A program made the translations under genes and the position numbers. A stretch of 64,000 bases of DNA from Alphaproteobacteria bacterium (GTDB lineage: Bacteria; Pseudomonadota; Alphaproteobacteria; Bin95), in the NCBI GenBank assembly GCA_965261985.1, contig OZ253490.1, positions 1,511,947 through 1,575,946 of the forward strand, written 5' to 3'. How positions within the stretch are numbered: position 1 is the stretch's first letter; the number at the start of each line of letters is the position of its first letter. The notes under the pieces are model-generated. The model made no database searches, was not told the DNA's origin, and saw only the letters and a list, made by a program, of their open reading frames with translations. Below, one piece after another: positions 4,754-56,601 of this stretch.

Positions 4754-5174
4754 TATGGCGTTCCAGGTCTTCCTGGTCGCTGCCGATCTCGTCCTCCGAG
4801 ATCACCTTGCCGCGCACGGACATCTGCGCCAGATGCACGGTTTCCGGGTCTCCCGAGACCAAGGGGTGCCACCAGTAGAGGTCCTTGCCCTCATGCAGCA
4901 GGCGGTAGGCGCAGCTCGACGGCATCCAGGCGATCTCGGCGACATTGCGCGGCGAGAGCTGGATGCAGTCCGGCACGCGGGCCTTGCGGTTGGGGTAGTC
5001 GGTGCAGCGGCAGCTTTCGGAGTCGAGCAGCCGGCAGGTGACGCAGGTCGGCTCGATCTCGCCCGTATCCGCCCATTCGATCTTGAGCAGGCAGCATTTG
5101 CCGCAGCCGTCGCAGAGCGACTCCCACTCTTCCGGCGTCATCTCGTCCAGCCGCTTCTCGCGCCAGAACGTCAT
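4734..5174 (-). CDS. YcgN-family cysteine-cluster protein (UPF0260)
   Basis: 146-aa product [31 protein letters not shown]... with the conserved Cys cluster. Start ATG at 5174. The 352-aa ORF upstream of it is non-coding. Confidence 0.75.
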
Positions 5175-5569
5175 GGCCGCCGTCCGTCCCGCCCGCTGCC
5201 CGGCTCTTCCTGGCGTTCGTCGCCGGTGAGGCCGAGCGCCCACATTGCGGCCAGCACACCGCCCTTCGCCACCGGCAGCAGCACGGCGATCAGAGCCAGC
5301 GCCAGCAGCGGCCAGACCAGCACCTGCAGCCAGAGCGCCGGCGCCCAGGTCTGCTCGACGAACAGCAGCAACGGCACGACGATATGCCCGGTGACCAGAA
5401 TGGCGATATAGGGCGGGAAATCGTCGGCGCGGATATGGCCGAGCGCCTCGCCGCACCCGGCGCAGGCCGCTACCGGGCGCAGATAGCCGGCAAAAGCCGC
5501 TCCCTCGCCGCAGGCGGGGCAGCGCCGGCGAAGGCCGTTGCGGAGGGCGGGTCCGAGCGCGCGCGCCAT
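5171..5569 (-). CDS. DUF983 family protein
   Basis: CPACGEG...CAGCGE zinc-ribbon followed by a hydrophobic segment. Start ambiguous: ATG at 5569 or TTG at 5605. Confidence 0.5.
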
Positions 5570-5616
5570 GCCCGGCAAGGTGGCCCCGCCTTCGCAGCGG
5601 GTCAAGCGGCGCCGCG

Positions 5617-6897
<1,281 letters not shown>

Positions 6898-9267: not shown

Positions 9268-10047
9268 TCAGAAGGTCCCCGGATAAAGGCCGCCGTCCAT
9301 CAGCACGTTGTTGGCGGTCATGAAGCCGACATGCTCGCTGCAGAGGAAGGCGCAGACCTTGCCGAATTCCTCTGCGGTGCCGAAGCGGCCCGCCGGCGTG
9401 GCGGCCATGCGCCGCTCGCGCGCCGTCGCCTCGTCGATGCCGGCCTGTTTCGCCGCATGGACGATGCCGCTCTGCAGCCGGTCGGTGTCGAACGGACCCG
9501 GCAGCAGGTTGTTGATGGTCACATTGCGGTCGATGACCTCACGGCAGATGGTGTTGCAGAAACCGTGCAGCGCCAGGCGCGCGGCCGTCGAGAGGCCGAG
9601 ATTGGGCACCGGCATCTTGGTCGATTGCGAGGTGATGTTGACGATCCGCCCGAAGCCGCGCTCTGCCATGCCGTCCACGACGGCGGTAATCGTCTCCGCA
9701 TGGCCCAGAAGCTGGGCTTCCAGCGCCGCCAGCCAGCGCTCGCGGGTATCGGTGCGGAAATTGCCGGGCGCCGGCCCGCCGGCATTGGTCACCAGGATGT
9801 CGGGGGCCGGGCAGGCGGCGAGGATCGCCTGGCGGATTTCGGGAAGCGTTATGTCGCCGGCGATGGCCGTCACCTCGACGCCGGCGGCATCCCGGATTTC
9901 GGCGGCCGTCGCCTCGAGTTCGGAGGCCGTGCGGGCATTGATGACCAGATGCACGCCTTCCCCGGCGAGCGCCATGGCGCAGCCCTTGCCGAGACCCTTG
10001 CTGGCGGCGCCGACGATGGCCCGCTTACCCGCGATTCCGAGATCCAT
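9268..10047 (-). CDS. SDR-family oxidoreductase
   Basis: GKRAIVGAASKGLG Rossmann motif, catalytic-region pattern and a length of 259 aa. Confidence 0.8.
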   Translation of the reverse strand: MDLGIAGKRAIVGAASKGLGKGCAMALAGEGVHLVINARTASELEATAAEIRDAAGVEVTAIAGDITLPEIRQAILAACPAPDILVTNAGGPAPGNFRTDTRERWLAALEAQLLGHAETITAVVDGMAERGFGRIVNITSQSTKMPVPNLGLSTAARLALHGFCNTICREVIDRNVTINNLLPGPFDTDRLQSGIVHAAKQAGIDEATARERRMAATPAGRFGTAEEFGKVCAFLCSEHVGFMTANNVLMDGGLYPGTF

Positions 10048-10741
10048 GAGTGTCGTCTCCCTGTTCGAATGCGCCCTCGGCGACCAGTTCCCGCACCAGG
10101 CCGGCGGTGATCCGGCGCCGGCCGGCGAGCGCCGCGCTGTCCAGAATATCTACCGCACGGCGCGCCGCGGCGAAACTGCGTTCGATCCGGCGCAGCAGCA
10201 GGTCGAGCACATCCTGGCCGATTTCGATCTGCCGGTCGGCGAACTGCTTGGCGAGCACGGCTTCCAGCAGGCTGTCGTCGGGCGGGCGGATCGCGGCGGC
10301 GGGCGCCGCCGAGAGGCGCGAAGCGAGGTCGGCGGTCCTGAGCCGCCAGCGCGAGGGCGGGGCGGCCGCGGTCAGCAGCAGCGAGCCGCCCCGGTTCGCC
10401 AGCAGGTTGTAGAGGTGCAGCAGGGCGAGCTCGTCCACGGCCTTGTCGGCCCCGTCGATGACGAGGTGCTGCCGGCCGCCCAGCAGGTTGACCGGATTGG
10501 CCTCCGCCAGCGCCGCCGGCGGGACCGGCACGGCGCCGCTCCGCGCCTGCCAGACATGGGCCAGATGCGTCTTGCCCGCCCCTGCCGGCCCCCAGACCGT
10601 CAGCGCCGGAGCCGGCCAGTCGGGCCAGCGGTCGATCCACGCCACCGCTTCGGCATTGCTGTCGGCGACCAGGAAATCCTCGGCGCCCATGGCCGTGCGA
10701 TGGCCGAGATGCAGGATGAATTGCCGGCTAAGGGGCGTCAT
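10025..10741 (-). CDS. hdaA: DnaA regulatory inactivator HdaA (DnaA-related AAA+ protein)
   Basis: Walker A GPAGAGKTHL at the Hda/DnaA-domain III position, 238 aa. Its stop overlaps the SDR start. Confidence 0.7.
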   Translation of the reverse strand: MTPLSRQFILHLGHRTAMGAEDFLVADSNAEAVAWIDRWPDWPAPALTVWGPAGAGKTHLAHVWQARSGAVPVPPAALAEANPVNLLGGRQHLVIDGADKAVDELALLHLYNLLANRGGSLLLTAAAPPSRWRLRTADLASRLSAAPAAAIRPPDDSLLEAVLAKQFADRQIEIGQDVLDLLLRRIERSFAAARRAVDILDSAALAGRRRITAGLVRELVAEGAFEQGDDTHGSRNRG

Positions 10742-36650: not shown

Positions 36651-38195
36651 TTGCGGAGCGACGAAGGGTTCGCCCCGGAAGAGAGCCGGCGCCCGCTGCC
36701 GGCCCGTCACGCAGGGAATTGCGCACACATCTGGAACGGAAGAGGCGTGCCGGCCTTGAATAGTCCCGCAAATCGCACCGTTCCGTCGCCGGAATTCGCC
36801 CTCTCCTGCCTCCGCTCGCCGCTCGGGAGCCTGTTCGCCCGGCCCTGGTTCGACCGCGCCGCCCTGCCGGTCCTGTCCGGCTGGTATTTCCCGCTGTCCC
36901 GGCTCTGGGCGGCGGCGCGGGCGGCAGAAGGCTCCGTGGAGCGGTATTTTGCCGAGGTTCCCATATCGCCCACGCCGCGCCTCGAACGCGCGCTCGGGTT
37001 GCGCCTCAGCCGCTTCGAGCGGGTCCGCGCGCAGGCCCTGGAGAGCGAGCGCGCCTGGGAGGAGGCCTTTTTCGGCCCCGCCGCGGCAGCGCCGGCGGTG
37101 CTCCGGGAGGCGGAGCGGGCGCGGCTGTTCGACCGCCATGCCTATAATGCGTTGCGCCGGATGTTCGCGCCGTTCAGGGTCTGGGGCCGGGCGGCGCCCT
37201 TCCGCTGGCAAATCCCGGACTCCGCCGAGGTAGAAGCGCTGTACGGTGCTTTCGCTGCCGAGCCCGGGCGCGCCTTCGCCGTGCCGGAGCGCATGCCGCC
37301 CGTCCGGGTCTCGCATGCCTTCCCGGCTGCGGCCGGCAGGCGGGACTACTGGATCCGGTTCGCCTCCCCGTCGGCCCGGATGAACGATGAGGTCGTCGCC
37401 CGGGTGTACGAGCCCGTCGGCGCCGCCGACCCGCCGACATTGATCTTCGGCCACGGCATCGGGGTCGAGTTCGATCATTGGCGGGGGGTGGCGGACGAGA
37501 TCGAGGCGCTGGTCGGGGCGGGCGTCCGGGTCGTGCGGCCGGAAGCCCCCTGGCACGGACGGCGGGTCCTGCCCGGCCGCTATGGCGGGGAGCAGTTCGT
37601 CGCGACGGCGCCCTGTGGGGCGCTCGACCACTTCACCGCTGCGGCCCGCGAATGGGCGGTGCTGATCGACTGGTGCAGGCAGGCAGGCAGGGGACCGGTC
37701 GCTATCGGCGGCTGCAGCGTCGGCGCGATGACGGCGCAGATCGTCGCCGACAGGGCGCGCGAATGGCCGGAGCGTCTCAGGCCCGATGCGATGCTGCTCA
37801 TCACGCCTTGCGGGCGCATTGAGGAGGTGATGCAGGGTTCGCTGGCCCGGGCCTGGGGCGTCGCCGGGGCCATGGCGGCGCACGGGTGGACGGGCGAGCT
37901 GGCGCGGCGGTTCATGCCGCTCCTCGATCCGGCGGACGAAACGGCGGTTGCGCCGGAGCATATCGTCACCGTGCTCGGCGCCTATGACGAGGTCATGCCC
38001 TATGAGGGCGCGCGGGCGCTGATCGACGGTTGCGGCGTGCCGCGGGAGAACCGGTTCGTCTGGCGCCGGGGCCATTTCAGCGTGCCGCTCACCATGCTCC
38101 GAAACCGTGCCCCGCTGGCCCGCTTCCGGGAGGTGTTAGCCCGGATTTCTCACCAAGGTCATGGCCTGCGCGGTGCTGTCGGCCCGGCAGGGTAG
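36651..38195 (+). CDS. alpha/beta-hydrolase fold protein with long N-terminal extension
   Basis: GCSVGAM nucleophile elbow and a downstream His. The start is uncertain, and the first 60-100 aa may be non-coding. Confidence 0.5.
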   Translation: MRSDEGFAPEESRRPLPARHAGNCAHIWNGRGVPALNSPANRTVPSPEFALSCLRSPLGSLFARPWFDRAALPVLSGWYFPLSRLWAAARAAEGSVERYFAEVPISPTPRLERALGLRLSRFERVRAQALESERAWEEAFFGPAAAAPAVLREAERARLFDRHAYNALRRMFAPFRVWGRAAPFRWQIPDSAEVEALYGAFAAEPGRAFAVPERMPPVRVSHAFPAAAGRRDYWIRFASPSARMNDEVVARVYEPVGAADPPTLIFGHGIGVEFDHWRGVADEIEALVGAGVRVVRPEAPWHGRRVLPGRYGGEQFVATAPCGALDHFTAAAREWAVLIDWCRQAGRGPVAIGGCSVGAMTAQIVADRAREWPERLRPDAMLLITPCGRIEEVMQGSLARAWGVAGAMAAHGWTGELARRFMPLLDPADETAVAPEHIVTVLGAYDEVMPYEGARALIDGCGVPRENRFVWRRGHFSVPLTMLRNRAPLARFREVLARISHQGHGLRGAVGPAG

Positions 38196-38387
38196 GAGAG
38201 ACGCGAAGCGCGATGCGGGGCATCGGGCAAGCGGATCGACGCACCATGCCGGGCCGACAGCGCCGCCCTCCGGGTCGCACCCAGGCGCCCGCCCGCAGCG
38301 TCGCGGGCCTCAACCGTAGGCTCCGCTACGCTTTTCGGCCCGCTCCTTGCGGATCGAACGCCTGGACGCGACGCAGGCCGCGACCTT

Positions 38388-38470
38388 GGTGAGAAATCCG
38401 GGCTCACCCGGGCTCGCCTGACCGGGCGCGCATTGCAGGCCGTGACAATGGTGAGAATTCCGGGCTAAAC
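38388..38470 (+). repeat. two copies of a GTGAGAA(A/T)TCCGGGCT motif upstream of the dienelactone hydrolase gene (a third copy lies at 48005-48025)
   Basis: GGTGAGAAATCCGGGCTCACC (38388-38408) and GGTGAGAATTCCGGGCTAAAC (38450-38470) compare with AGTGAGGAATCCGGGCTAAAA at 48005. Confidence 0.5.
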
Positions 38471-42095: not shown

Positions 42096-43001
42096 ATGAC
42101 ACCCCTCCGGCTGATCCCGAGGCGCATGCTGCCGCGCAATGCGTGGGGGGACAGGGAGTTCTGTCGGCGGCGGTTCGTGCGGAGGCAAGGGCGGCGACCG
42201 GGTCTGCGCGGTTCGGAGCGCCTCACCGACCTGCTCTACAGGATTAAAACAGATGGTTCGCTTCTCGACCCTCTGTGCCAGTTCGTGACCGACAAGGAGT
42301 TTGCGAAGCAATATATCGAGAACGCGGTCGGCCCGGGTTATGTGCCGGAGACCTATAAGGTCTTGAGAAACGCCGAGGACATAAGAGCTTTCGTCCCTGA
42401 TCGCGCCCCCTGCGTGTTGAAGCCAACGCATTTGAGCGGCCCGGTTCTCTTCCATACTGACCCGGACGAGGACATTGACCGCGACCTGCTTTTCGAATGG
42501 CTGAAGAAGGAGCGATATACCAGCACAAGGGAGGCCAATTACCGCTTCCTCCGGCCCAAGGTCATTGTCGAGGAATTCCTATCTGAGGACGGCGTGTCCG
42601 TGCCGAAGGATTACAAGCTGTTCTGCTTTCGCGGAGTCCCGAAGATGGTCCAGGTGGACTCGGACAGATTTGGCGAACACACGCAGAATTTCTACGATTT
42701 GGATTGGAATCGGTTGCCAGTCACCTATGGCGTGCCAACCGGGCAAGAGGACGACGACAAGCCACGGCTGTTGGACGAAATTCTAACCGTGTCGTCAAAA
42801 TTATGCTCGCCCTTCTCGTTCGTTCGAGTGGACTTGTATGTGAGCGAGACAGTCATCAAGGCCGGCGAACTGACATTCAGCCCGCGAGGTGTGAACGATT
42901 TGCTGCTTCCGCCCGCCGCCGACATCGAACTCGCAAAGCTCTTCGACCCGGATTACCGGCTGGATGCGAGGGCCTGCGCCGAGGCATGGGCGAACGGTTA
43001 A
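42096..43001 (+). CDS. ATP-grasp fold protein, TupA-like (teichuronopeptide-type amidoligase family)
   Basis: DYKLFCFRGVPKMVQVDSDRF..HTQNFYDLDWN and SPFSFVRVDLY match the TupA-like ATP-grasp family. The gene body is visibly lower in GC. Confidence 0.6.
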   Translation: MTPLRLIPRRMLPRNAWGDREFCRRRFVRRQGRRPGLRGSERLTDLLYRIKTDGSLLDPLCQFVTDKEFAKQYIENAVGPGYVPETYKVLRNAEDIRAFVPDRAPCVLKPTHLSGPVLFHTDPDEDIDRDLLFEWLKKERYTSTREANYRFLRPKVIVEEFLSEDGVSVPKDYKLFCFRGVPKMVQVDSDRFGEHTQNFYDLDWNRLPVTYGVPTGQEDDDKPRLLDEILTVSSKLCSPFSFVRVDLYVSETVIKAGELTFSPRGVNDLLLPPAADIELAKLFDPDYRLDARACAEAWANG

Positions 43002-43181
43002 TTGGCGGTCAGGCACTTGCCGCTGGAGACGATGACCATGCGCCTGACGGGCGGCGGCAGCGACCGCCGCCTGCGGGCGTTCTTTTCCCTTACCCTGCTG
43101 CCAATGACCGGAATCGTGGCCGGAAATTCATGGGCGATTCTGGCGGCCATGTAGCAGGGAAACTCGGTGCTCGGTAGTGTT

Positions 43182-43913
43182 TCACTTCGACTTTCGGGCT
43201 GCGTGCATGTGCAGCCGGTCGCCCCAGCGGTAGCAAGTCGCTGCCAGGTGTTCGAGCCGGGTTCGCTTGACCTTTGGCCTGGTCTCGATGGTGGGCGGAA
43301 CGCCCGCGTGGGTGACGATGGCCGGATCGACGGCGAGGAAGGTCAGCCCGTTCTGCCACCATTCCGCATAGAGCCAGTCTATCGGCGCGCGGATGCGCCA
43401 GCAGTAGTGAAGCAACGCCTCGGCCGCTTCCAGCCGGATGAGATAGCCGACGGCTCCGCCGAAGCGGCGGCGATACCGGACAAGCCAGCGGACACCGTCC
43501 AGCACGGCGAGCGCCCGGTCAATGCGGTATCGCCGTTTCGGCGCGAGGTTCACGATGTCCCATTCCGCATCGGTTTTCAGGATTTCCTCGACGATGACGG
43601 CAAACCCGTCCTCCAGCCGCGCGTCGTCTTGCAGGATGACGGCGTAGGGCGTCTTGGTCTCGACCATGCGTTGCCAGATAAGCCAGTTCGACAGCAGGCA
43701 GCCGATCTGACCCGGAGCCAGTTCGCGGCCCCGCATGATGCGCCACCACCCGGTCTGCATCCGGTGGCGGTATTCGCTCTCGTCCAGTGCGTTCCCGTCC
43801 ACGGCGTCGAAGAATTCGAAGTCGAACCCGGCAAGCTCCTGCTGCATGGCTGCACGGCGCTCGACGTCCCGTGCAAGGGAGATAACGAAGATCGGCGGAA
43901 TGGTGCTTGACAT
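43182..43913 (-). CDS. glycosyltransferase family 25 (LPS biosynthesis Lic2B/LpsA-like)
   Basis: IFVISLARDVERR N-terminus typical of GT25. Start ATG at 43913. Confidence 0.7.
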   Translation of the reverse strand: MSSTIPPIFVISLARDVERRAAMQQELAGFDFEFFDAVDGNALDESEYRHRMQTGWWRIMRGRELAPGQIGCLLSNWLIWQRMVETKTPYAVILQDDARLEDGFAVIVEEILKTDAEWDIVNLAPKRRYRIDRALAVLDGVRWLVRYRRRFGGAVGYLIRLEAAEALLHYCWRIRAPIDWLYAEWWQNGLTFLAVDPAIVTHAGVPPTIETRPKVKRTRLEHLAATCYRWGDRLHMHAARKSK

Positions 43914-44099
43914 GGGGAAAATATACGAAAGTGCCCACGGGCCGTCATTCTGACGGCTTTGGCTCCCGCTTGAGATAGTCCCATTCATCCACGCCGCGGG
44001 GCGGGGCGGTCATCAGCGCACGAAGCACATTCTCCGGGCTGTCGGGGATACGCTCCGGCATGGGCTTCTCGACCGGTCGGTCGCGCTTGTGGGAATGGA

Positions 44100-44912
44100 T
44101 CATGGGCGACCTCCCTCTTGCTGCGGTGTTTCACTGTAGGGGATTCGCGTCTTACGCACTACGCCGAGCGCGGACAGAGTCAACACGCGGGCCTTGTAGG
44201 GAATTACGCCGACATTCCGCCGTAAGCGGTGCCAGACACTGGTACGCCCGCGCATTCTAGCCCTTTCCCGCCACTGCTGTTGATCGGTTCCATACTCCGC
44301 TCTTTGCCTCGCCATATCTGGGACAATCTGCATCGGGCGCAGCCGCCGTGCCGTCTTTGAGTAGCGAAGATCGAACAGGGTATGGTCCACTGTATGGTCC
44401 GGGTTCGCAAACGCCGCCAGTGCGATCTGCGCGCCGCGCCGGTCGATGATGTAAGCGGCTGAGCCCCCACACCATCTCTCCAGCCGCTGTATCGCACGAC
44501 CGGTTGGGGTCCTGCCCGTCGGGCACCACAGCGGCCGAGAGTGGCTATAACCTTCTTCGAGCCTGATGATAAGTCCCTCGGACGGCCACCAATCCGTTTC
44601 AGTCAGCAGGAGCCGCGTGTCGGAAGCCAGTTCAGCATCGTCTTCAAGGATTAGCGCCGCCGGCGCATCCGAGTCGAGAAGCTCGATCATGGCCTTGCTG
44701 TGTCCGAGCATGTTCGCCGCCGATCCGAGGTTGATGCGCCAGAACGGCGGATTGCCGTTGGCGTCGCTCTGCCATTCCTCTTGAGCGGCGAGCGAGCGAG
44801 CATCGACAGCGGGGATGCGCGTTGCCCCGATGCCCAGGCGATCGAGCTGTTCCGACATCATCGCCCACCGATCCGGGCGGCGGTCGAGATTGATGACGAA
44901 GACAGGCAGCAT
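44100..44912 (-). CDS. glycosyltransferase family 25
   Basis: VFVINLDRRPDRW N-terminus, a paralog of the previous gene. Confidence 0.7.
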   Translation of the reverse strand: MLPVFVINLDRRPDRWAMMSEQLDRLGIGATRIPAVDARSLAAQEEWQSDANGNPPFWRINLGSAANMLGHSKAMIELLDSDAPAALILEDDAELASDTRLLLTETDWWPSEGLIIRLEEGYSHSRPLWCPTGRTPTGRAIQRLERWCGGSAAYIIDRRGAQIALAAFANPDHTVDHTLFDLRYSKTARRLRPMQIVPDMARQRAEYGTDQQQWRERARMRGRTSVWHRLRRNVGVIPYKARVLTLSALGVVRKTRIPYSETPQQEGGRP

Positions 44913-45095
44913 GACAGACCCCGCAAGGCCCGTCGCTGGTGCCGGGCCGTTGTGACCGATCCACAGGAATGCAGAGAGTCCTGTCTATTCGCCGGGCATA
45001 GGGGAACAACCACGCGGCCGCGCGTCGGCTGTTCTATTCAGCAGGCGGCCCAACGAAGCGGGATGCCCATGGACTAGTCACGAGGTCAGTCTGCT

Positions 45096-45206
45096 TTACA
45101 GGAAATATCGGCGCAAGCACGCCGCGAGTCCTTCGGCAAGGACGAGCGCGCTTCGTTCCGCGCCGCCGCCGGTCAGGCTGCGCAGCATCAGGCCGATATG
45201 GGCCAT
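45096..45206 (-). pseudogene. truncated N-terminal remnant of a glycosyltransferase family 4 (GT4) glycosyltransferase
   Basis: MAHIGLMLRSLTGGGAERSALVLAEGL parallels the N-terminus of the GT4 at 39926 (MPHIAMVIPSLAGGGAERTALRVAGGL) and stops after 36 codons. Confidence 0.5.
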
Positions 45207-45878
45207 TTCGAGGTCCGACCCCGCCGGGAGTGAAGCTGCGGTTATACAGCAAGCGGTCGGCGGTCGCGGCATCTTCGCCAGAGGCGGCGAGGCGCAATTG
45301 GAAAAATTTCTGTTTTGTTCTCCTGGGGGACTTGATTCTGGAAATTCTGTGGTAGCATGAATCAGGAGCAAGCGGTGTCCGGACGCCGCTTCGCCTGGCG
45401 CCGGCGCGAAAAACACCCAATGGAACAGACAGGAGACGTGTGCCTTGCGCTTGCCCGCGCGCGGGCAATCAGGCGCGCAAAGCCGCGCCGGCGCGAACGC
45501 AGGCGCACGCGCACATGCAATACGCGCGAAAAAGGGCGCTTCCCCGGAACCCGGCGGCGGCGCGAACCGGGCGACCGGGGCGTGGCGGACGGGGGCAGTT
45601 ATCTGCGGGACGGCCGAAGGTCGCGCCATCTTCCCGGCGGCCGCAAGGTGCCATACGAAAAAATTATAAAACACAAAAGAAAACGGTATTGGCTCTTATC
45701 CAGTGCCGTTGCCAGATTGCTGTTGTCCGGTTCGGAGTTTGCCGGTTCCGGGCGAACGGGGTCGAAAACGACGGCGTAACGCCGAAGAGAGGGAAAAGTG
45801 GACGTTCCGAAACAGGCGGCAAACCCCGGGAAGGCACACAACCGGGATGCCGAAAACCGGAAGAGAGGCCGCCGCGCC

Positions 45879-45986
45879 ATGGCGGCTGCGGGGCTCGCGC
45901 CGGCCGTATTGGCCGTGGCGGTCTTCGCGCTCACCGCCGGCCCGGAGCAGGCGCACGCCTGCTTCCTCGGCATCCCCTGCCGGTAG
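45879..45986 (+). CDS. small ORF: signal-peptide-like segment plus an 8-aa Cys-containing tail (MAAAGLAPAVLAVAVFALTAGPEQAHA|CFLGIPCR)
   Basis: GAAGAGAGG Shine-Dalgarno site upstream of the ATG at 45879. An alternative GTG start at 45798 adds a basic N-terminal region ending in RKRGRR. Followed by two hairpins, including a canonical intrinsic terminator. Confidence 0.35.
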   Translation: MAAAGLAPAVLAVAVFALTAGPEQAHACFLGIPCR

Positions 45987-46012
45987 CGGTTTCCTCCCCT
46001 GCTACCGGCAAC

Positions 46013-46051
46013 GCAGCCGGCGGGCCCCCCACCCGCCGGCTGCATTCTTTT
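46013..46051 (+). terminator. Rho-independent terminator
   Basis: GCAGCCGGCGGG-CCCCCCA-CCCGCCGGCTGC forms a perfect 12-bp GC stem followed by ATTCTTTT. It is preceded by a second hairpin (CCGGTAGC...GCTACCGG, 45980-46008) spanning the small-ORF stop. Confidence 0.7.
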
Positions 46052-46276
46052 GCGCGGAGGGCTGCCGCCTCCTCCGAAGCTCCTCGCCCCGCTTGCGGGG
46101 AGAGGCCGGGCGAGGGGCAGCGGTGCGGACCTCGACGCGGAGGATTGCGTGGTAAACCTGTTACGGGAGGCGGCGTCCGGCGCCGCGGGACGGCATGGGC
46201 AGCGGTTTTCGGAAAAGCAGGGGAAGGCCCGTCCGGCGGCCGGGGCGCAGGGGGCCTCATGACAAAACATGACATT

Positions 46277-47902
46277 TCGTAACTGCCCAGGATGTTGGTC
46301 GTAGGGGCGTTGGCGCCTGGGGTAGTTTCAGGCGTATCGGATTTCGTCGATGAAGCTGCGAGGCGACCCCATCAGGGTGTTGAGGACGTCCCGGCCCTGC
46401 TTTTGAGCGGTGGCGATGATTGTGCGCAGTATGGCGAAGTCGTCTGCGCCGCTTCGGGAGCGGAAGCCTCCGGAGATTTTCTGGCGCAGTTTCATCATGC
46501 GCAGGTCGCGCTCGGCCTCATTATTGGTGAAGGGGACCTGTGGGTCGGTCAGGAAGCGCAGGGTCTCGTCCCGGCGCTCATGCAGGCGCAAAGCGAGGTT
46601 GTGACCCTTGCGCCGCCTCGGGGCCCCGCGCCGGCCGGGCGAGGAGAGCGGCGGCTGGTTCTCATGGAACGCCATCGCCTCGACAAGCAGCCGGTCGTAG
46701 CCGCGCACCAGACGCGCCAACAAACGCCCCGGAACGGCCATGTCCCGCTCCCGCGCCAGCCGCGCCACGCGCCGGGCCCGAAGCAGATGACGCTGCATGC
46801 GCCGGGCCCAGTCCTCCTTGTCGAACTCCACAAGCGCCTGCAACTCCCGAAGGTGATGCGCGTTGCAAAGCGCATGCTCCACACCCGCCATCGGCCAGTA
46901 GCATTGCCAGTGGTCGTGCACTGCGACCCCGGACACCCCCGCAGGCACGGCGCCGCGCCGCTCGCTCACCCGATACGCCGCCAGCAAGAGCCTGCCCCGG
47001 ACCCGATCCGGGGATGTGCAGATCACATGGAGCCACCGCGTGCGTGCGCCAATGCGAAGTCCGGTCTCGTCCAGATGCTTCACACGCGCCCCGACCGCCG
47101 CAAGCTCCTCTATATGCCCGCCCGCAGCCTGAAAACGCTCCGCCGCACGACGGCTCATCGACGCCAGCGTCGCAGGCGACACGCGCGCTCCGAACAAAAC
47201 CCCCAGAACCTCCGACAGCCGGCGCTCCGGAAGGAACTGCGCATGACGGAGCCATACCGCAACGCCCGAAAGACGAGGGCCATACTGAACCGGACCCGAT
47301 ACGCCATCGGGAAACGCCGCCCGCGTCACAGCCCCGCAACGCCCGCAGCGACACGCATGGCCGCGATGCTCCGTCACTTCCAAAGGACGCGGCTCAGGAA
47401 GGTCGAATACCTGACGCGCTACCGGCGCGCCCACAAAAGACGCTCCCAAAAGAGACGCCCCGCAGCCCCCGCACGCCGCTGGAACATGGTCCTTCACACG
47501 GTCCGGGCTCGCCGTCCGGCACAGCGTCCGGCCCTTGTGGCCCGGCTGACCGCCCGGCTTGCGATCCGTCTTGCCACGAAGGCTCTGTGTGCGGCGCTCA
47601 GACGACGGCTTCTTCAAACCGTCGCTCGAAGGAGGCTTGCCGCTATTGCCGCTGTTCAGACCGAGACGGCGCTCCAGCTCACCTATCCGCTCCCGAAACC
47701 GCGCGGTCTCCTCCCGAAGCGAGGCGTTCTCCTCCCGAAGCCAAGCGGTCTCCAACTCAAGACGCGCGATCTTCTGTCCGGAAGTCTCGGACCCGGCCAC
47801 CCTCAATGGGTCAAACGGCTCGGAACGACTCATCCAAAGGTTGACTCATTTTTCGTTCCCACCGTCAACCCCATAACCAAATCTGACATCCTGGGCAGTT
47901 AC
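46277..47902 (-). mobile_element. IS66-family insertion sequence, single-ORF (ISBst12-like) type
   Basis: Perfect 17-19-bp terminal inverted repeats GTAACTGCCCAGGATGT begin with the IS66-typical GTAA. The only internal ORF is a TnpC-like transposase. The element is flanked by an 18-bp direct repeat GACAAAACATGACATTTC. Confidence 0.8.
46328..47833 (-). CDS. IS66-family transposase (TnpC-like)
   Basis: 501 aa with an N-terminal leucine-zipper-like region, a CxxC...CxxC zinc-finger region and an IS66 transposase core. Confidence 0.85.
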   Translation of the reverse strand: MSRSEPFDPLRVAGSETSGQKIARLELETAWLREENASLREETARFRERIGELERRLGLNSGNSGKPPSSDGLKKPSSERRTQSLRGKTDRKPGGQPGHKGRTLCRTASPDRVKDHVPAACGGCGASLLGASFVGAPVARQVFDLPEPRPLEVTEHRGHACRCGRCGAVTRAAFPDGVSGPVQYGPRLSGVAVWLRHAQFLPERRLSEVLGVLFGARVSPATLASMSRRAAERFQAAGGHIEELAAVGARVKHLDETGLRIGARTRWLHVICTSPDRVRGRLLLAAYRVSERRGAVPAGVSGVAVHDHWQCYWPMAGVEHALCNAHHLRELQALVEFDKEDWARRMQRHLLRARRVARLARERDMAVPGRLLARLVRGYDRLLVEAMAFHENQPPLSSPGRRGAPRRRKGHNLALRLHERRDETLRFLTDPQVPFTNNEAERDLRMMKLRQKISGGFRSRSGADDFAILRTIIATAQKQGRDVLNTLMGSPRSFIDEIRYA

Positions 47903-48062
47903 GACAAAACATGACATTTCATGACATGTCGCGACCGTCCCGGCCCGACGGCGGGAGGGGGAAAAGAGGAGCGGCAGCGACGGCGGGGCGCAGACCATGA
48001 CACGAGTGAGGAATCCGGGCTAAAATCGCGCCTTGTTTCCACAGCAGCCGGGGAGGAAGCGC

Positions 48063-49760
48063 ATGGCAGACGACCGGCATCCGTGGCTCGCGAGCTACCC
48101 CGAGAACATAAGCTGGGACGCGGAGATTCCCGAGGGACCGCTCTTCGCAATCCTGGACGACTCCGTCCGTCGCTTCCCGACCCATGAGGCCATGGACTTC
48201 CTGGGCCGGACCTGGAGCTATGCCGAGCTCGGCGCCATGGTGGACCGCGCCGCCGCCGGGTTCCGTTCCCTCGGCGTGGACAAGGGCGTCAAGGTGGGGC
48301 TGTTCCTGCCGAACTGCCCGCAATTCGTCGTTGCCTATTTCGGCATCCTCAAGGCCGGCGGCACGGTGGTGAACTACAGCCCGCTCTATTCGGAGGAGGA
48401 ACTCGCCTACCAGATCGAGGACTCCGAGACCGACATCATGGTGACGCTCGGCCTGGCCGCGCTCTATCCCAAGATGGCGGCGCTGCTGGCGCGCACGCGC
48501 ATCCGCAAGCTGGTCGTCGGCCAGCTCCAGGACGTGCTGCCCTTCCCGAAGAACCTGCTCTTCCCGCTGTTGAAGCGCAGCGAGATTGCGAAGGTGCCGG
48601 ACGACGGCGACCATGTGCCCTTCCGCCGGCTGCTCGACAATGACGGCCTCCGCGAGCCGCCGGAGATCGACCCGCGCGAGGACATTGCGGTGTTCCAGTA
48701 TACCGGCGGCACGACCGGGGTTCCCAAGGGCGCGATGCTGAGCCACGCGAACCTCCACGCCAACATCCACCAGGCGCTGCAATGGAACCCGACGCTGGAG
48801 CCCGGCAGGGAACGCATGATGGGCGTGCTGCCGTTCTTCCATGTGTTCGCGATGACGGTGGTGATGAACTTCACCATCGCCATCGGCGGCTCCATCGTCA
48901 TGCGCCCGCGCTTCGAGCTCGACCCGGTGCTCCAGGACATCACGAAGAAGAAGCCGACGCTGTTTCCGGGCGTGCCGACCATGTACACGGCCATCGTGAA
49001 CCACCCGAAGCTCGACAGCTTCGACCTCACCTCGATCAAGACCTGCATGTCGGGCGGCGCGCCCTTGCCGGTGGAGATCAAGCGGCGCTTCGAGGAGCTT
49101 TCGGGTTGCAAGCTGGTCGAGGGCTACGGGCTGACCGAATCCGCGCCGATCGCCGCCTCCAACCCCTTCGAGGGCGTCAACAAGGAAGGCTCGGTCGGCG
49201 TTCCGGTGCCGGGCACGACGATCACGATCGTGGACAAGGAGGACCCCCTGAAGATCCTGCCGCAGGGCGAGGACGGCGAGATCTGCATCTCCGGCCCGCA
49301 GGTGATGAAGGGCTACTGGCGCCGGGAGGACGCGACGGCCGAGGCCATTGTCGAGGGCCGGCTGCGCACGGGCGATGTCGGGCACCTGGACGAGGACGGC
49401 TATGTGTTCATCATCGACCGCAAGAAGGACCTCGTGCTGGTGAGCGGCTTCAACGTCTTCCCGCGCAATGTCGAGGAAGCGATCTATCGCCATCCCGCCG
49501 TCGAGGAGGTCACCGTCATCGGCATTCCGGACGACTATACCGGCGAGGCGGTGAAGGCGTTCGTCAAGCTCGGCGAGGGCGCGGCGCTGGAGGCCGAGGA
49601 GCTGCTCGCCTTCCTCCGGGACAAGCTCGGCCGCCACGAGGCCCCGAAACATATCGAGTTCCGCGACGAGCTGCCCAAGACGATGATCGGCAAGCTCTCC
49701 AAGAAGGAGCTGGTCGCGGAAGAAGCGGCCAGGCGGGCAGCGGCGGAAACGGCGTCCTGA
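48063..49760 (+). CDS. long-chain-fatty-acid--CoA ligase (AMP-dependent synthetase/ligase)
   Basis: YTGGTTGVPKGAMLSH AMP-binding motif and GYGLTE. GGGGAGGAAG ribosome-binding site. 565 aa. Confidence 0.85.
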   Translation: MADDRHPWLASYPENISWDAEIPEGPLFAILDDSVRRFPTHEAMDFLGRTWSYAELGAMVDRAAAGFRSLGVDKGVKVGLFLPNCPQFVVAYFGILKAGGTVVNYSPLYSEEELAYQIEDSETDIMVTLGLAALYPKMAALLARTRIRKLVVGQLQDVLPFPKNLLFPLLKRSEIAKVPDDGDHVPFRRLLDNDGLREPPEIDPREDIAVFQYTGGTTGVPKGAMLSHANLHANIHQALQWNPTLEPGRERMMGVLPFFHVFAMTVVMNFTIAIGGSIVMRPRFELDPVLQDITKKKPTLFPGVPTMYTAIVNHPKLDSFDLTSIKTCMSGGAPLPVEIKRRFEELSGCKLVEGYGLTESAPIAASNPFEGVNKEGSVGVPVPGTTITIVDKEDPLKILPQGEDGEICISGPQVMKGYWRREDATAEAIVEGRLRTGDVGHLDEDGYVFIIDRKKDLVLVSGFNVFPRNVEEAIYRHPAVEEVTVIGIPDDYTGEAVKAFVKLGEGAALEAEELLAFLRDKLGRHEAPKHIEFRDELPKTMIGKLSKKELVAEEAARRAAAETAS

Positions 49761-55093: not shown

Positions 55094-55470
55094 CGCAACA
55101 TCGCTCCTTCGCGCCGCGCAAGACTGCCCGGATTTCTCGCCATTGTCATGGTCTGCGCGGCCCGAAGGCGCCGCCCTTCCCAACGCATCCGCGCAGTGCA
55201 GACTTCACACAGGAAATGGCGTGCTAGAGCGGAATCCTTTCGGCTTGGATCGCATTTCGGACCGAACCCACAATCGTCACCCCGGCCGGAGCGAAGCGGA
55301 GAGCTGGGCCCCGGATCGCAGTCCGGGGCGACGAACGGGACACGAGTCCGGCAGCTATCCGCCCACCGCCAGTCGATTCATCCGGATCGAATTGTGCTCT
55401 AACGAGAGCATCGGTCCATGATCGATGACTGCAATTCGTTCATGAATTATGAAGTAATTCTCTGTAGGGG

Positions 55471-55830
55471 CTTGACCCCTGTAAAACCGTGGTAGGATGG
55501 GACAGGAGGAAGCGGCATCCGGAGGCCGCTTCGTCTCCCGCTTCGCGCCGGCGCGAAAAAACCCCAAAGGAACGGACGGGAGACGTGCGCCCTGCGCTTG
55601 GCTCGCGCGCGCAATCAGGCGCGCGAACCGCGCCGGCGCGAACGCGGGCGCGCGCGCCCATGCGATACGCGCGAAAAAGGGACGCGCCGCAGGCAAGCCG
55701 GCGGCGGTGCGAACGGAACGAAACGCGACGGAGGAACGACATGCGGGATGGAGACAAGCGGACCTCGGACGAGGTCGGTGGAGGCGGGTGTGTCCCGGCG
55801 GAACATGACACATCATGACATTTCATGACG
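55471..55830 (+). repeat. copy B of the dispersed repeat family (short variant) with its own CTTGAC-N17-TAGGAT promoter-like motif
   Basis: 5' hairpin AAGCGGCATCCGGAGGCCGCTT, GC palindromes (TTCGCGCCGGCGCGAA) and a 3' ATGACA x3 at 10-bp spacing (55805-55830). Confidence 0.7.
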
Positions 55831-56120
55831 TTTTCGGGTGTCTCCTCCGGGAGCCGGCGGATGGCGGCCGCTTACTGCCCGGCTGAGCGCTCGGGGGCGG
55901 GGCTGCTTCGTCTCCCGCCTCGCGCCGGCGCGAAACGGTCATGCGATACGCGCGAAGAAGGGGCGCACTGCCGGGAAGCCGGCGGCAGCGCGAACGGCAC
56001 GAAACGCGATGGAGGAACGACATGCGGCATGCAGACGAACGGCGCTCCGGCGAGGCCGGCGGCGGCAGGCGGCGCGCGACGGGTCATGACATCGCATGAC
56101 AGAACATGACATTTCGCGAC
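55831..56120 (+). repeat. copy C of the dispersed repeat family (tandem to B, 5'-truncated/divergent)
   Basis: Shares CGCGAA-rich core segments with B and ends with ATGACA x3 at 10-bp spacing (56086-56111). Confidence 0.6.
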
Positions 56121-56238
56121 AGCCTCTGGGCTCATGGGGATGGATGGAGTTGCGGGCCCCCGCCCGTACATTCCGCCGGCGAATCCCTTGTGGCAGAGTG
56201 GGGGCCGCGCAACCGAGCAGGGCAAGGAGGACCGGGCG

Positions 56239-56601
56239 ATGTTCGACAAGGGGCATCTGGAGTTCCACAGCGTCGATCTGGACACGGGCTGGGAGGTGCC
56301 GGCGGGCTATCCGGCCGGCATCGAGCAGAAAATACTGGCCGGCGGGCTGGACGAGGCGGCCGGGCGGGGCAACCGCTCGCGCCTGCTGCGCTTCGCGCCG
56401 GGCGCCTTCACCACCGAGCCGTTCGTGCACGACTACTGGGAGGAGGTCTATCTGCTCTCGGGCGACCTCGCGGTCGGCGCCGGGGGAGGCGCGGAAACCT
56501 TCGCGCCCAACACCTATGCCTGCCGCCCGCCGGGCGCTTATCACGGCCCGTTCCGCTCCGATGGCGGCTGCATGCTGCTCGAAATCCACTATTACGCCTG
56601 A
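56239..56601 (+). CDS. cupin-domain protein (120 aa)
   Basis: Cupin beta-barrel pattern. AAGGAGG ribosome-binding site. Start ATG at 56239. Confidence 0.6.
   Translation: MFDKGHLEFHSVDLDTGWEVPAGYPAGIEQKILAGGLDEAAGRGNRSRLLRFAPGAFTTEPFVHDYWEEVYLLSGDLAVGAGGGAETFAPNTYACRPPGAYHGPFRSDGGCMLLEIHYYA

Follow-up and report, generated by a model that had tools for sequence, protein, structure and literature searches.

The DNA analysed here is a stretch of 64,000 nucleotides of the contig OZ253490.1, referred to as the window, and derives from an uncultured alphaproteobacterium of high GC content. Judging from the comparison with its homologues, a small open reading frame (ORF) located upstream of fadD in this window is a genuine, conserved and unannotated gene of Rhodospirillales-type bacteria. 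From the same comparison we conclude that the ORF is coding, that its translation starts at position 45798 and that the functional part of its 62-residue product is the C-terminal dozen residues, ending in CFLGIPCR. The gene lies in a region that the original prediction, made from the letters of the DNA, had described as the long variant (copy A) of a repeat family, and the best explanation of its surroundings is that the segment 45649-46056 is an autonomous small transcription unit (Table 1).

Table 1. Features of the small-gene module and of the surrounding DNA (positions in the window)
Feature	Position	Strand	Description or basis
GC-rich repeat core, copy A	45300-45648	+	5' hairpin 45369-45392; GC palindromes with A-rich linkers between; common to copy B
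Self-contained small-gene module	45649-46056	+	upstream motif, 5' untranslated region (UTR), ORF, anti-Shine-Dalgarno hairpin and terminator; homology with L086, L003, L090 and L091
Bipartite upstream motif TTATAA-N17-TATTGG	45664-45692	+	in AT-rich patch; candidate promoter
Small 5'-UTR hairpin CGGCG-UAA-CGCCG	45772-45784	+	just 5' of the Shine-Dalgarno sequence; flagged terminator-like on the minus strand
Shine-Dalgarno sequence GAGAGGG	45787-45793	+	4 nt 5' of the GTG start
Small protein gene, 62 aa	45798-45986	+	MDVPKQAANPGKAHNRDAENRKRGRRAMAAAGLAPAVLAVAVFALTAGPEQAHA followed by CFLGIPCR; homologues, coding signature, GC3 > GC1 > GC2
Predicted leader/signal region, residues 1-54	45798-45959	+	charged N-region, hydrophobic segment, P-x-x-A-H-A
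C-terminal octapeptide CFLGIPCR, putative mature peptide	45960-45983	+	tail conservation and omega
12-bp hairpin with 9-nt anti-Shine-Dalgarno loop UUUCCUCCC	45978-46010	+	loop 45990-45998; stop codon 45984-45986 in the 5' arm
Rho-independent terminator	46013-46051	+	hairpin 46013-46043, 12-bp stem (11 G-C), then ATTCTTTT
Variable 3' spacer with GGAGG/CCUCC hairpins	46052-46257	+	apparent mobile-element insertion hot spot in relatives
CATGACA array, first part, closing the repeat element	46258-46276	+	10-bp period; cut here by the insertion sequence
IS66-family insertion sequence	46277-47902	-	transposase 46328-47833; 17-bp inverted repeats beginning GTAAC; flanking 18-bp direct duplication
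CATGACA array, rest after the insertion sequence	47903-47926	+	comparison with L001 and array search
Copy B (55440-55840) and partial tandem copy B2 (~55860-56125)	55440-56125	+	without small ORF

The first protein search retrieved two homologues, with 97% and 64% identity, the latter from the locus L003 (related loci carry L numbers and family members P numbers). Taken alone, the pair formed by the window and L003 looked non-coding, because its substitutions (10/17/11 at codon positions 1/2/3) display no third-position enrichment and its last 70 nt before the stop codon contain a single substitution (CAC to CAG, a replacement) and zero synonymous changes, a pattern that points to constraint at the nucleotide level. 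The coding status was settled by more distant copies, which keep the peptide through synonymous changes. In fact, a back-translated scan of JGI metagenomes added four further loci, among them L088, whose strongly diverged DNA still encodes ...ANACFLGIPCW immediately before the stop codon, with four synonymous changes in the codons of CFLGIPC. The indels present among the homologues are of 3 nt and 12 nt and preserve the frame, the only one between the window and L003 being of 3 nt, and the stop codon, TAG in the window and TAA in L003, alternates between these two forms among the relatives. Furthermore, GC content ranks by codon position as GC3 > GC1 > GC2 in the frame of the ORF, as in the neighbouring fadD. 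The original prediction had connected a non-coding RNA element with loss of the frame among homologous copies; the opposite was found, since frame, start, Shine-Dalgarno (SD) sequence and stop are kept across clades with strongly diverged DNA, in about 50 clusters. The ORFs of the opposite strand were rejected, having the wrong GC-by-position pattern and no Pfam match.

The comparison also moves the start of the gene. The ORF had been placed at 45879-45986, and its end was correct, but neither the ATG at 45879 nor the SD site preceding it is conserved, L003 having no ATG at that place, whereas the start codon at 45798 is retained, as GTG in the window and as ATG in L003, L085 and L090. A purine-rich, SD-like sequence precedes this start in every locus (GGAGACG in L003, GGAGG in L088 and L092).

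The homologues, which come in their majority from metagenome assemblies, amount to about 50 clusters in all and share the ending A-x-A-[C/G]FLGIPC[W/R], replaced in a second subfamily by A-x-A-CLLPGIPC. A profile search returned 36 convincing small-protein clusters, and an exhaustive hidden Markov model search of 1.84 billion representatives (E <= 0.001) returned 22 clusters at 50% identity. Members are 36-71 amino acids long, with the exception of a few over-called ORFs, the motif stands at the extreme C terminus in all of them, and six-frame scans find it once per locus. Where these proteins are named at all, in two metagenome-assembled genomes (MAGs) at NCBI and three JGI records, they are called only "hypothetical protein"; the ORF is without a Pfam match even when E values up to 10 are admitted, Pfam and NCBIfam scans with four variants of the family yielded only weak signal-anchor-like noise (CcmE, VirB8, anti-sigma factors), and a literature search on the C-terminal motifs of the family found no paper.

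Selection is concentrated at the C terminus. According to Nei-Gojobori counts, purifying selection on the last 14 codons is strong, with omega of 0.00 between L088 and L092 (Sd 5.0, Nd 0), 0.09 between the window and L088 and 0.14-0.19 in the comparisons against L089, and the leader evolves almost freely, the preceding codons giving 0.65-1.4 with the exception of 0.37 within the 63-aa clade (L088 vs L092). In the tail, which is CFLGIPCR in the window and CFLGIPCW in most relatives, G, I and P are invariant in a 31-sequence alignment and nearly invariant in all recovered members, and the second cysteine (C61) is nearly invariant.

The region preceding the tail has the composition of an export signal. 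In a rule-based survey of 52 family members, the N-region is net positive in 50, and an uncharged segment of 16-26 residues with a mean Kyte-Doolittle hydropathy of about 2 is present in all but one (P0054, in which it has 9). Alanine occupies position -3 with respect to the tail in 48 members and position -1 in 51, with free variation at -2 (N 23, Q 18, H 9, Y 2) and, in most members, a proline 3-6 residues before the tail. A charged N-region followed by a hydrophobic segment, and an AxA site with a helix breaker upstream, are features of a Sec signal peptide cut by signal peptidase I, and in the shortest members (P0036 and P0037) the protein is a classic signal peptide of 28 amino acids followed by CFLGIPCW. 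The original prediction of a signal peptide with an AxA site before a two-cysteine octapeptide is thus borne out by the survey, by the near-invariant tail and by the selection on the last 14 codons.

These features suggest that the product is probably exported to the periplasm. The prepeptide would begin with an N-region that is variable and positively charged, continue with a hydrophobic segment and a site for signal peptidase I, P-x-x-A-x-A, and end in the octapeptide; the hydrophobic segment would direct insertion by the Sec pathway, keeping the N terminus inside and placing the C terminus outside, signal peptidase I would cut after AHA, and a hydrophobic octapeptide, able to form a C-x5-C disulfide, would be set free in the periplasm. 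To the whole of this proposal, Sec export followed by cleavage and release of the octapeptide, we give an even chance, and any signalling, antimicrobial or regulatory role is likewise inferred.

Several observations weigh against this proposal. With about 18-23 residues, the hydrophobic stretch is long for a cleavable signal peptide and would suit a signal anchor equally, and the N-region is of unusual length (22-28 residues). The first cysteine of the tail is replaced by G, S or Y in 14 of the 52 members, so a disulfide is not essential. The gene is linked to no receptor, transporter or modifying enzyme. The AlphaFold model, of low confidence (pLDDT 58.7), consists of a single long helix broken at Gly-Pro. 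Finally, L093, a near-identical copy (5001-5579), carries two insertions of 1 nt in the leader, which is consequently out of frame with the conserved tail and represents either a pseudogene or a long-read assembly error; in the same locus, the gene caller joined the small gene to a spurious ORF through the repeat core (the 192-aa P0053).

Two other export routes were considered and rejected. A twin-arginine (Tat) leader had been suggested on the basis of the basic residues before the hydrophobic segment; the RR pair is found beside this segment in only 35 of the 52 members, being replaced by YR, CR, PH, AR or RH in others, and the flanking consensus S/T-R-R-x-F-L-K is absent. A lipoprotein processed by signal peptidase II is excluded by the replacement of the first cysteine, which puts G, S or Y at position +1 in those 14 members; moreover, position -3 holds A in place of L and position -2 one of N, Q, H and Y, at variance with the lipobox L-[A/S]-[G/A]-C.

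The alternative that survives best, possible though clearly less probable than release of the octapeptide, is that the protein is not cleaved and remains a small single-pass membrane protein with a cytoplasmic N terminus, whose periplasmic tail ...AxA-CFLGIPC[W/R] contacts a partner in the membrane or periplasm in the manner of MgrB. The original prediction had admitted a single-transmembrane micro-protein, and the length of the uncharged segment, 18-26 residues, which is that of a transmembrane helix, agrees with it. So do the somewhat constrained N-region of the 63-aa clade, the fact that the weak profile matches are all to N-terminal signal anchors, and the continuous helix that AlphaFold models over residues 10-46. 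Like MgrB, the protein would be small, with the N terminus inside, one transmembrane helix and a two-cysteine periplasmic tail, and MgrB also ends in ...IPW. However, alanines at -3 and -1 around a free -2, with a proline 3-6 residues upstream, form the signature of a peptidase I site and not of a binding surface, the transmembrane sequence is barely conserved, and the shortest members carry an ordinary signal peptide of 28 residues. Furthermore, neither MgrB nor any other small-membrane-protein family in Pfam matches the protein, its tail has 8 residues after an AxA site, and MgrB has no long N-region.

If the octapeptide is released, its role may be compared with that of Phr, PapR and NprX, the peptides of the RNPP systems of Firmicutes. 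Their precursors, of about 40-60 amino acids, are likewise little more than a signal peptide, with the active peptide of 5-8 residues at the extreme C terminus, and in them too the leader evolves fast while the peptide is conserved. Unlike the present gene, which has no conserved neighbour within 4 kb in five clades, their genes adjoin that of the receptor (rap, plcR, nprR); in addition, the host is Gram-negative, the product would enter the periplasm and there is no sequence similarity. By this analogy, the octapeptides [C/G]FLGIPC[W/R] or CLLPGIPC might be diffusible signals or antagonists in Rhodospirillales, Phr-like without a linked receptor and encoded on a bifunctional mRNA with a riboregulatory 3' hairpin (acting for example on fadD), a conjecture that we regard as unlikely as it stands.

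The 3' end of the gene has a structure of its own. As had been predicted, the stop codon lies inside a hairpin and a Rho-independent terminator follows; the two structures are not the tandem terminators of the original description, because the first hairpin has no U-tract and exposes an anti-SD loop instead, so that only one terminator is present. Within the GC-rich clade, the loop UUUCCUCCC(C) is almost invariant, with one base changed in L091, and the stems around it change in a compensatory way in L003, L086, L090 and L091 (G-C to A-U in L003; UAGCGG/CUGCUA to CAACGG/CCGUUG in L090 and L091). The terminator stem is invariant in the six sequences of this clade. The anti-SD hairpin is missing from the 63-aa clade and from L089, in which the protein is retained, and is therefore an add-on rather than the reason for the existence of the gene.

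This arrangement resembles that of the cuckoo RNAs, a likeness that is architectural. The two hairpins align to the Rfam model of ar14 (RF02344) with a score of 29.1 bits (E 6.5e-4 to 2.9e-3), below its gathering score of 58.8. By definition, cuckoo RNAs have 2-4 adjacent hairpins, the loop of each being CCUCCUCCC (PMC4615179), and in Rhodobacter they are cut out of the 3' UTR of a small ORF (PMC8034643). As in the CcaF1-CcsR locus, a hairpin with a C/U-rich anti-SD loop is located directly 3' of a small ORF and before a terminator in an alphaproteobacterium, and its stems covary around a fixed loop; here, by contrast, there is a single loop of the CCUCC type, UUUCCUCCC instead of CCUCCUCCC, the loop of the second hairpin (the terminator) is CCCCCCA, and the first hairpin overlaps the stop codon. 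The adjacent ORF of the CcaF1-CcsR (CIN1) locus encodes a DUF1127 protein, and membership of the present gene in DUF1127/CcaF1 was rejected, as the ORF matches no Pfam family. The 3' end of the GC-rich-clade mRNA, which comprises the anti-SD hairpin and the terminator, may also act as a cuckoo-like riboregulator.

The original description of a self-contained small transcription unit agrees with the terminator, with the upstream motif and with the variety of genomic contexts. At L086, the homology to the window is confined to 45649-46068, an unrelated gene lies directly 5' and the GC-rich repeat core is absent; since the module thus occurs without the repeat, copy A is a composite, in which a small-gene module sits inside a lineage-specific repeat made of a 5' core and a 3' CATGACA array, and the core is not part of the module. 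The same composite arrangement is found in L001 and L093. The neighbours differ by locus and comprise fadD, a thi operon, phoX/gcvT, a glyoxalase gene, and toxin-antitoxin and defence genes. A first tblastx comparison of the flanks was swamped by GC-rich noise; repeated with filters over 4 kb on each side in five clades, it detected nothing conserved outside the interval from -152 to +232 of the gene start.

Within that interval, the AT-rich patch reported at 45650-45700 is indeed present and contains the bipartite motif, which in its general form, TTATRR-N17-TATTRG, recurs, identically spaced, at -133/-134 or -150 relative to the start codon of 9 out of 10 loci, the distant 63-aa clade included. 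The motif is a poor sigma-70 match and was not called by a sigma-70 scan, yet it is the best candidate promoter of the small gene. The promoter originally proposed at 45331, in the repeat core, is not called by the scan either, and its hexamers are 15 nt apart. Downstream of the candidate promoter, hairpins equivalent to that of the 5' UTR, with other stem bases, are aligned in L003, L086 and L090.

With these elements in hand, the remaining readings can be weighed. A type-I-toxin-like module, also named in the original prediction, would encode a hydrophobic peptide silenced by folding of its mRNA, with the 3' anti-SD hairpin pairing with the SD as fbi does in hok, and possibly by an antisense RNA. 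A stand-alone, unannotated gene in variable regions near insertion sequences (IS), toxin-antitoxin and defence genes, the long conserved 5' UTR with its hairpin, the anti-SD loop in the 3' UTR and the terminator-like signal on the minus strand of the 5' UTR are features that such a module would have; yet selection acts on the extracytoplasmic tail and not on the hydrophobic helix, the hairpin is missing from the 63-aa clade and L089, which keep the protein, the loop pairs with its own SD over only about 6 bp (as counted from the sequence), and no antisense promoter was identified, so that we hold this reading to be improbable.

Still less credit is due to the view that the locus is only a non-coding RNA, a cuckoo/ar14-like small RNA or a part of the repeat, with an ORF that is fortuitous in GC-rich DNA. 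The sub-threshold ar14 match, the substitution pattern of the L003 pair and the hairpins conserved in the GC-rich clade point that way, but the diverged clades, which keep the peptide and its translation signals and lose the hairpins, largely refute it.

We give equally little weight to the suggestion of an upstream leader, that is, a cis-regulatory or arrest peptide controlling fadD, despite a conserved C-terminal motif that ends at a stop codon inside a hairpin, with a transmembrane segment upstream, as in SecM and MifM. The hairpin exposes UUCCUCCCC (45991-45999), a perfect 9-nt complement of the fadD SD GGGGAGGAA (48050-48058), with no further exact occurrence in the 64 kb; in L003 the loop and the fadD SD are both retained, and L005, which lacks the element, has a different fadD SD. 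However, the same loop also occurs where fadD is not adjacent, and the match may therefore be generic SD/anti-SD complementarity. In addition, a strong terminator and a separate promoter-like site (47997-48026) stand between the ORF and fadD, the downstream genes differ among loci, and the transmembrane segment, ending about 14 residues before the stop codon, would not yet have left the ribosome exit tunnel and would be unable to sense translocation.

The repeat element that surrounds the module in the window does not end at 46276, as had been proposed; an IS66-family element is inserted in the CATGACA array, which resumes at 47903, and the same site is uninterrupted in the metagenomic relative L001. 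The family assignment rests on DDE_Tnp_IS66 (PF03050, 9.2e-38), zf-IS66 (PF13005) and inverted repeats of the GTAA... type. The 18-bp duplication GACAAAACATGACATTTC, present at 46259-46276 and 47903-47920 around the IS, occurs once in the uninterrupted L001; the target duplications of IS66-family elements are usually of 8 bp, and one of 18 bp is unusual. The region just 3' of the small-gene terminator has been hit independently by distinct mobile elements, including an IS481-family element at about 1840-3110 of L003/L004, a miniature inverted-repeat transposable element of about 230 bp with ends TACCAACG/CGTTGGTA in L002 (~462-602) and L093 (~5760-6010), an HTH_23-type transposase gene at 6290-7474 of L092 and the IS66-family element of the window, and it looks like an insertion hot spot. 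In the same region of the window (46050-46262), the frame stays open for 70 more codons past the TAG stop, and its GC content by codon position is coding-like; L003 and L086 do not conserve this stretch, which has no Pfam match and is probably a compositional artefact.

The copies A (~45300-45650) and B (~55440-55720) share, as predicted, a core and a 5' hairpin (45369-45392 in copy A), with about 82% identity across about 228 nt; the alignment seeds are 45392-45453/55539-55600 and 45483-45536/55628-55681. The core folds strongly on both strands (z -3.1 and -2.5), and RNAalifold finds only 2 compensatory pairs in sequences that are too few and too similar. When the core and the gene module were compared for complementary stretches, only short GC-rich ones turned up. 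The core motif CATGCRATACGCGCGAARAAGGG has 0 matches in 185,579 species genomes and its looser form 0 in viral contigs, blastn of copies A and B against plasmids found no match, and neither did Rfam at the gathering level over the entire window; with E-value cut-offs, Rfam returned nothing but hits below its threshold. The core matches no named family; as a dispersed, GC-rich, palindromic intergenic repeat it recalls REP/BIME- or RIME-like elements, from which it differs by its greater length (~230-370 nt) and by the terminal array of three CATGACA units. The 3' arm of the 5' hairpin of copy A (45379-45392) is 93% complementary over 14 nt to 46167-46180, 774 nt away, a stretch that folds into a GCGGCG-UCCG-GCGCCGC hairpin of its own, so that similar hairpins lie near both ends of the repeat.

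Every repeat copy closes with a CATGACA array, of 3 units in most copies and 4 in L093, always with an exact 10-bp period. Copy B ends in two CATGACA and one CATGACG, and B2 in three CATGACA. The heptamer is over-represented (15 matches vs 3.9 expected), and its positions are 46258-46274, 47910-47926, 55804-55830 and 56085-56111 in the window, in addition to the end of L093. The 10-bp spacing suggests a protein-binding array, and TGTCAT, from the reverse complement of CATGACA, resembles a response-regulator half-site. Over 841 nt, the window (55440-56240) and L001 (17963-18803) show 100% identity in copy B with its flanks, but in copy A (45250-46279 vs 9452-10480) only 95.5%, as expected if the two genomes are mosaics or if copy B has been exchanged recently.

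As for the setting, copy A lies between a low-GC islet of glycosyltransferase-25 (GT25) genes (43182-44912, minus strand) and fadD. The DNA 5' of copy A (42096-45300) is a lower-GC (0.54-0.65) polysaccharide islet that varies by strain: the window has two GT25 genes and a TupA-like ATP-grasp gene there, L001 (6472-9872) has Methyltransf_21 genes, and in L005 (9443-10000) a truncated ATP-grasp gene abuts fadD directly. FadD (48063-49760) is 91% and 81% identical to its counterparts in two MAG chromosomes named "Alphaproteobacteria bacterium" and about 60% identical to that of Azospirillum; in a survey of FadD synteny in 80 genomes, the closest relatives, L005 (91%) and L006 (81%), have neither the repeat nor the small gene at the fadD site. 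Exact-protein look-ups of the window ORFs and of FadD returned no record. A second repeat family, CCATGACA-N18-TAAAAT, whose spacer contains GGAATCCGGGC, occurs at 38136-38181, 38359-38403, 47978-48023 and 55126-55170, that is, twice near 38.2 kb and once directly 5' of each of fadD and an APH-family kinase gene. The fadD copy is the only sigma-70-like site called there (10/12 matches), and the repeat may be a promoter or operator common to several genes.

Annotation routinely misses small ORFs of this size, and the family described here, conserved and yet without a Pfam or NCBIfam model, is a case in point. Should its members be only small membrane anchors, the result would be a modest gain in annotation. 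The family is a new, unannotated one of small proteins in which very strong selection acts on eight C-terminal residues behind a predicted signal-peptidase site. In Firmicutes, cell-cell signalling is based on exported peptides that are encoded as a signal peptide and a few further residues; to our knowledge, peptides so short are almost unknown in alphaproteobacteria, and a defined octapeptide of predictable mass, with a calculated [M+H]+ of 906.432 for CFLGIPCR as a disulfide, 908.448 for its reduced form and 936.411 for CFLGIPCW, makes the question directly testable. Furthermore, the overlap of the coding sequence with a conserved anti-SD hairpin suggests that the transcript may be a dual-function RNA.

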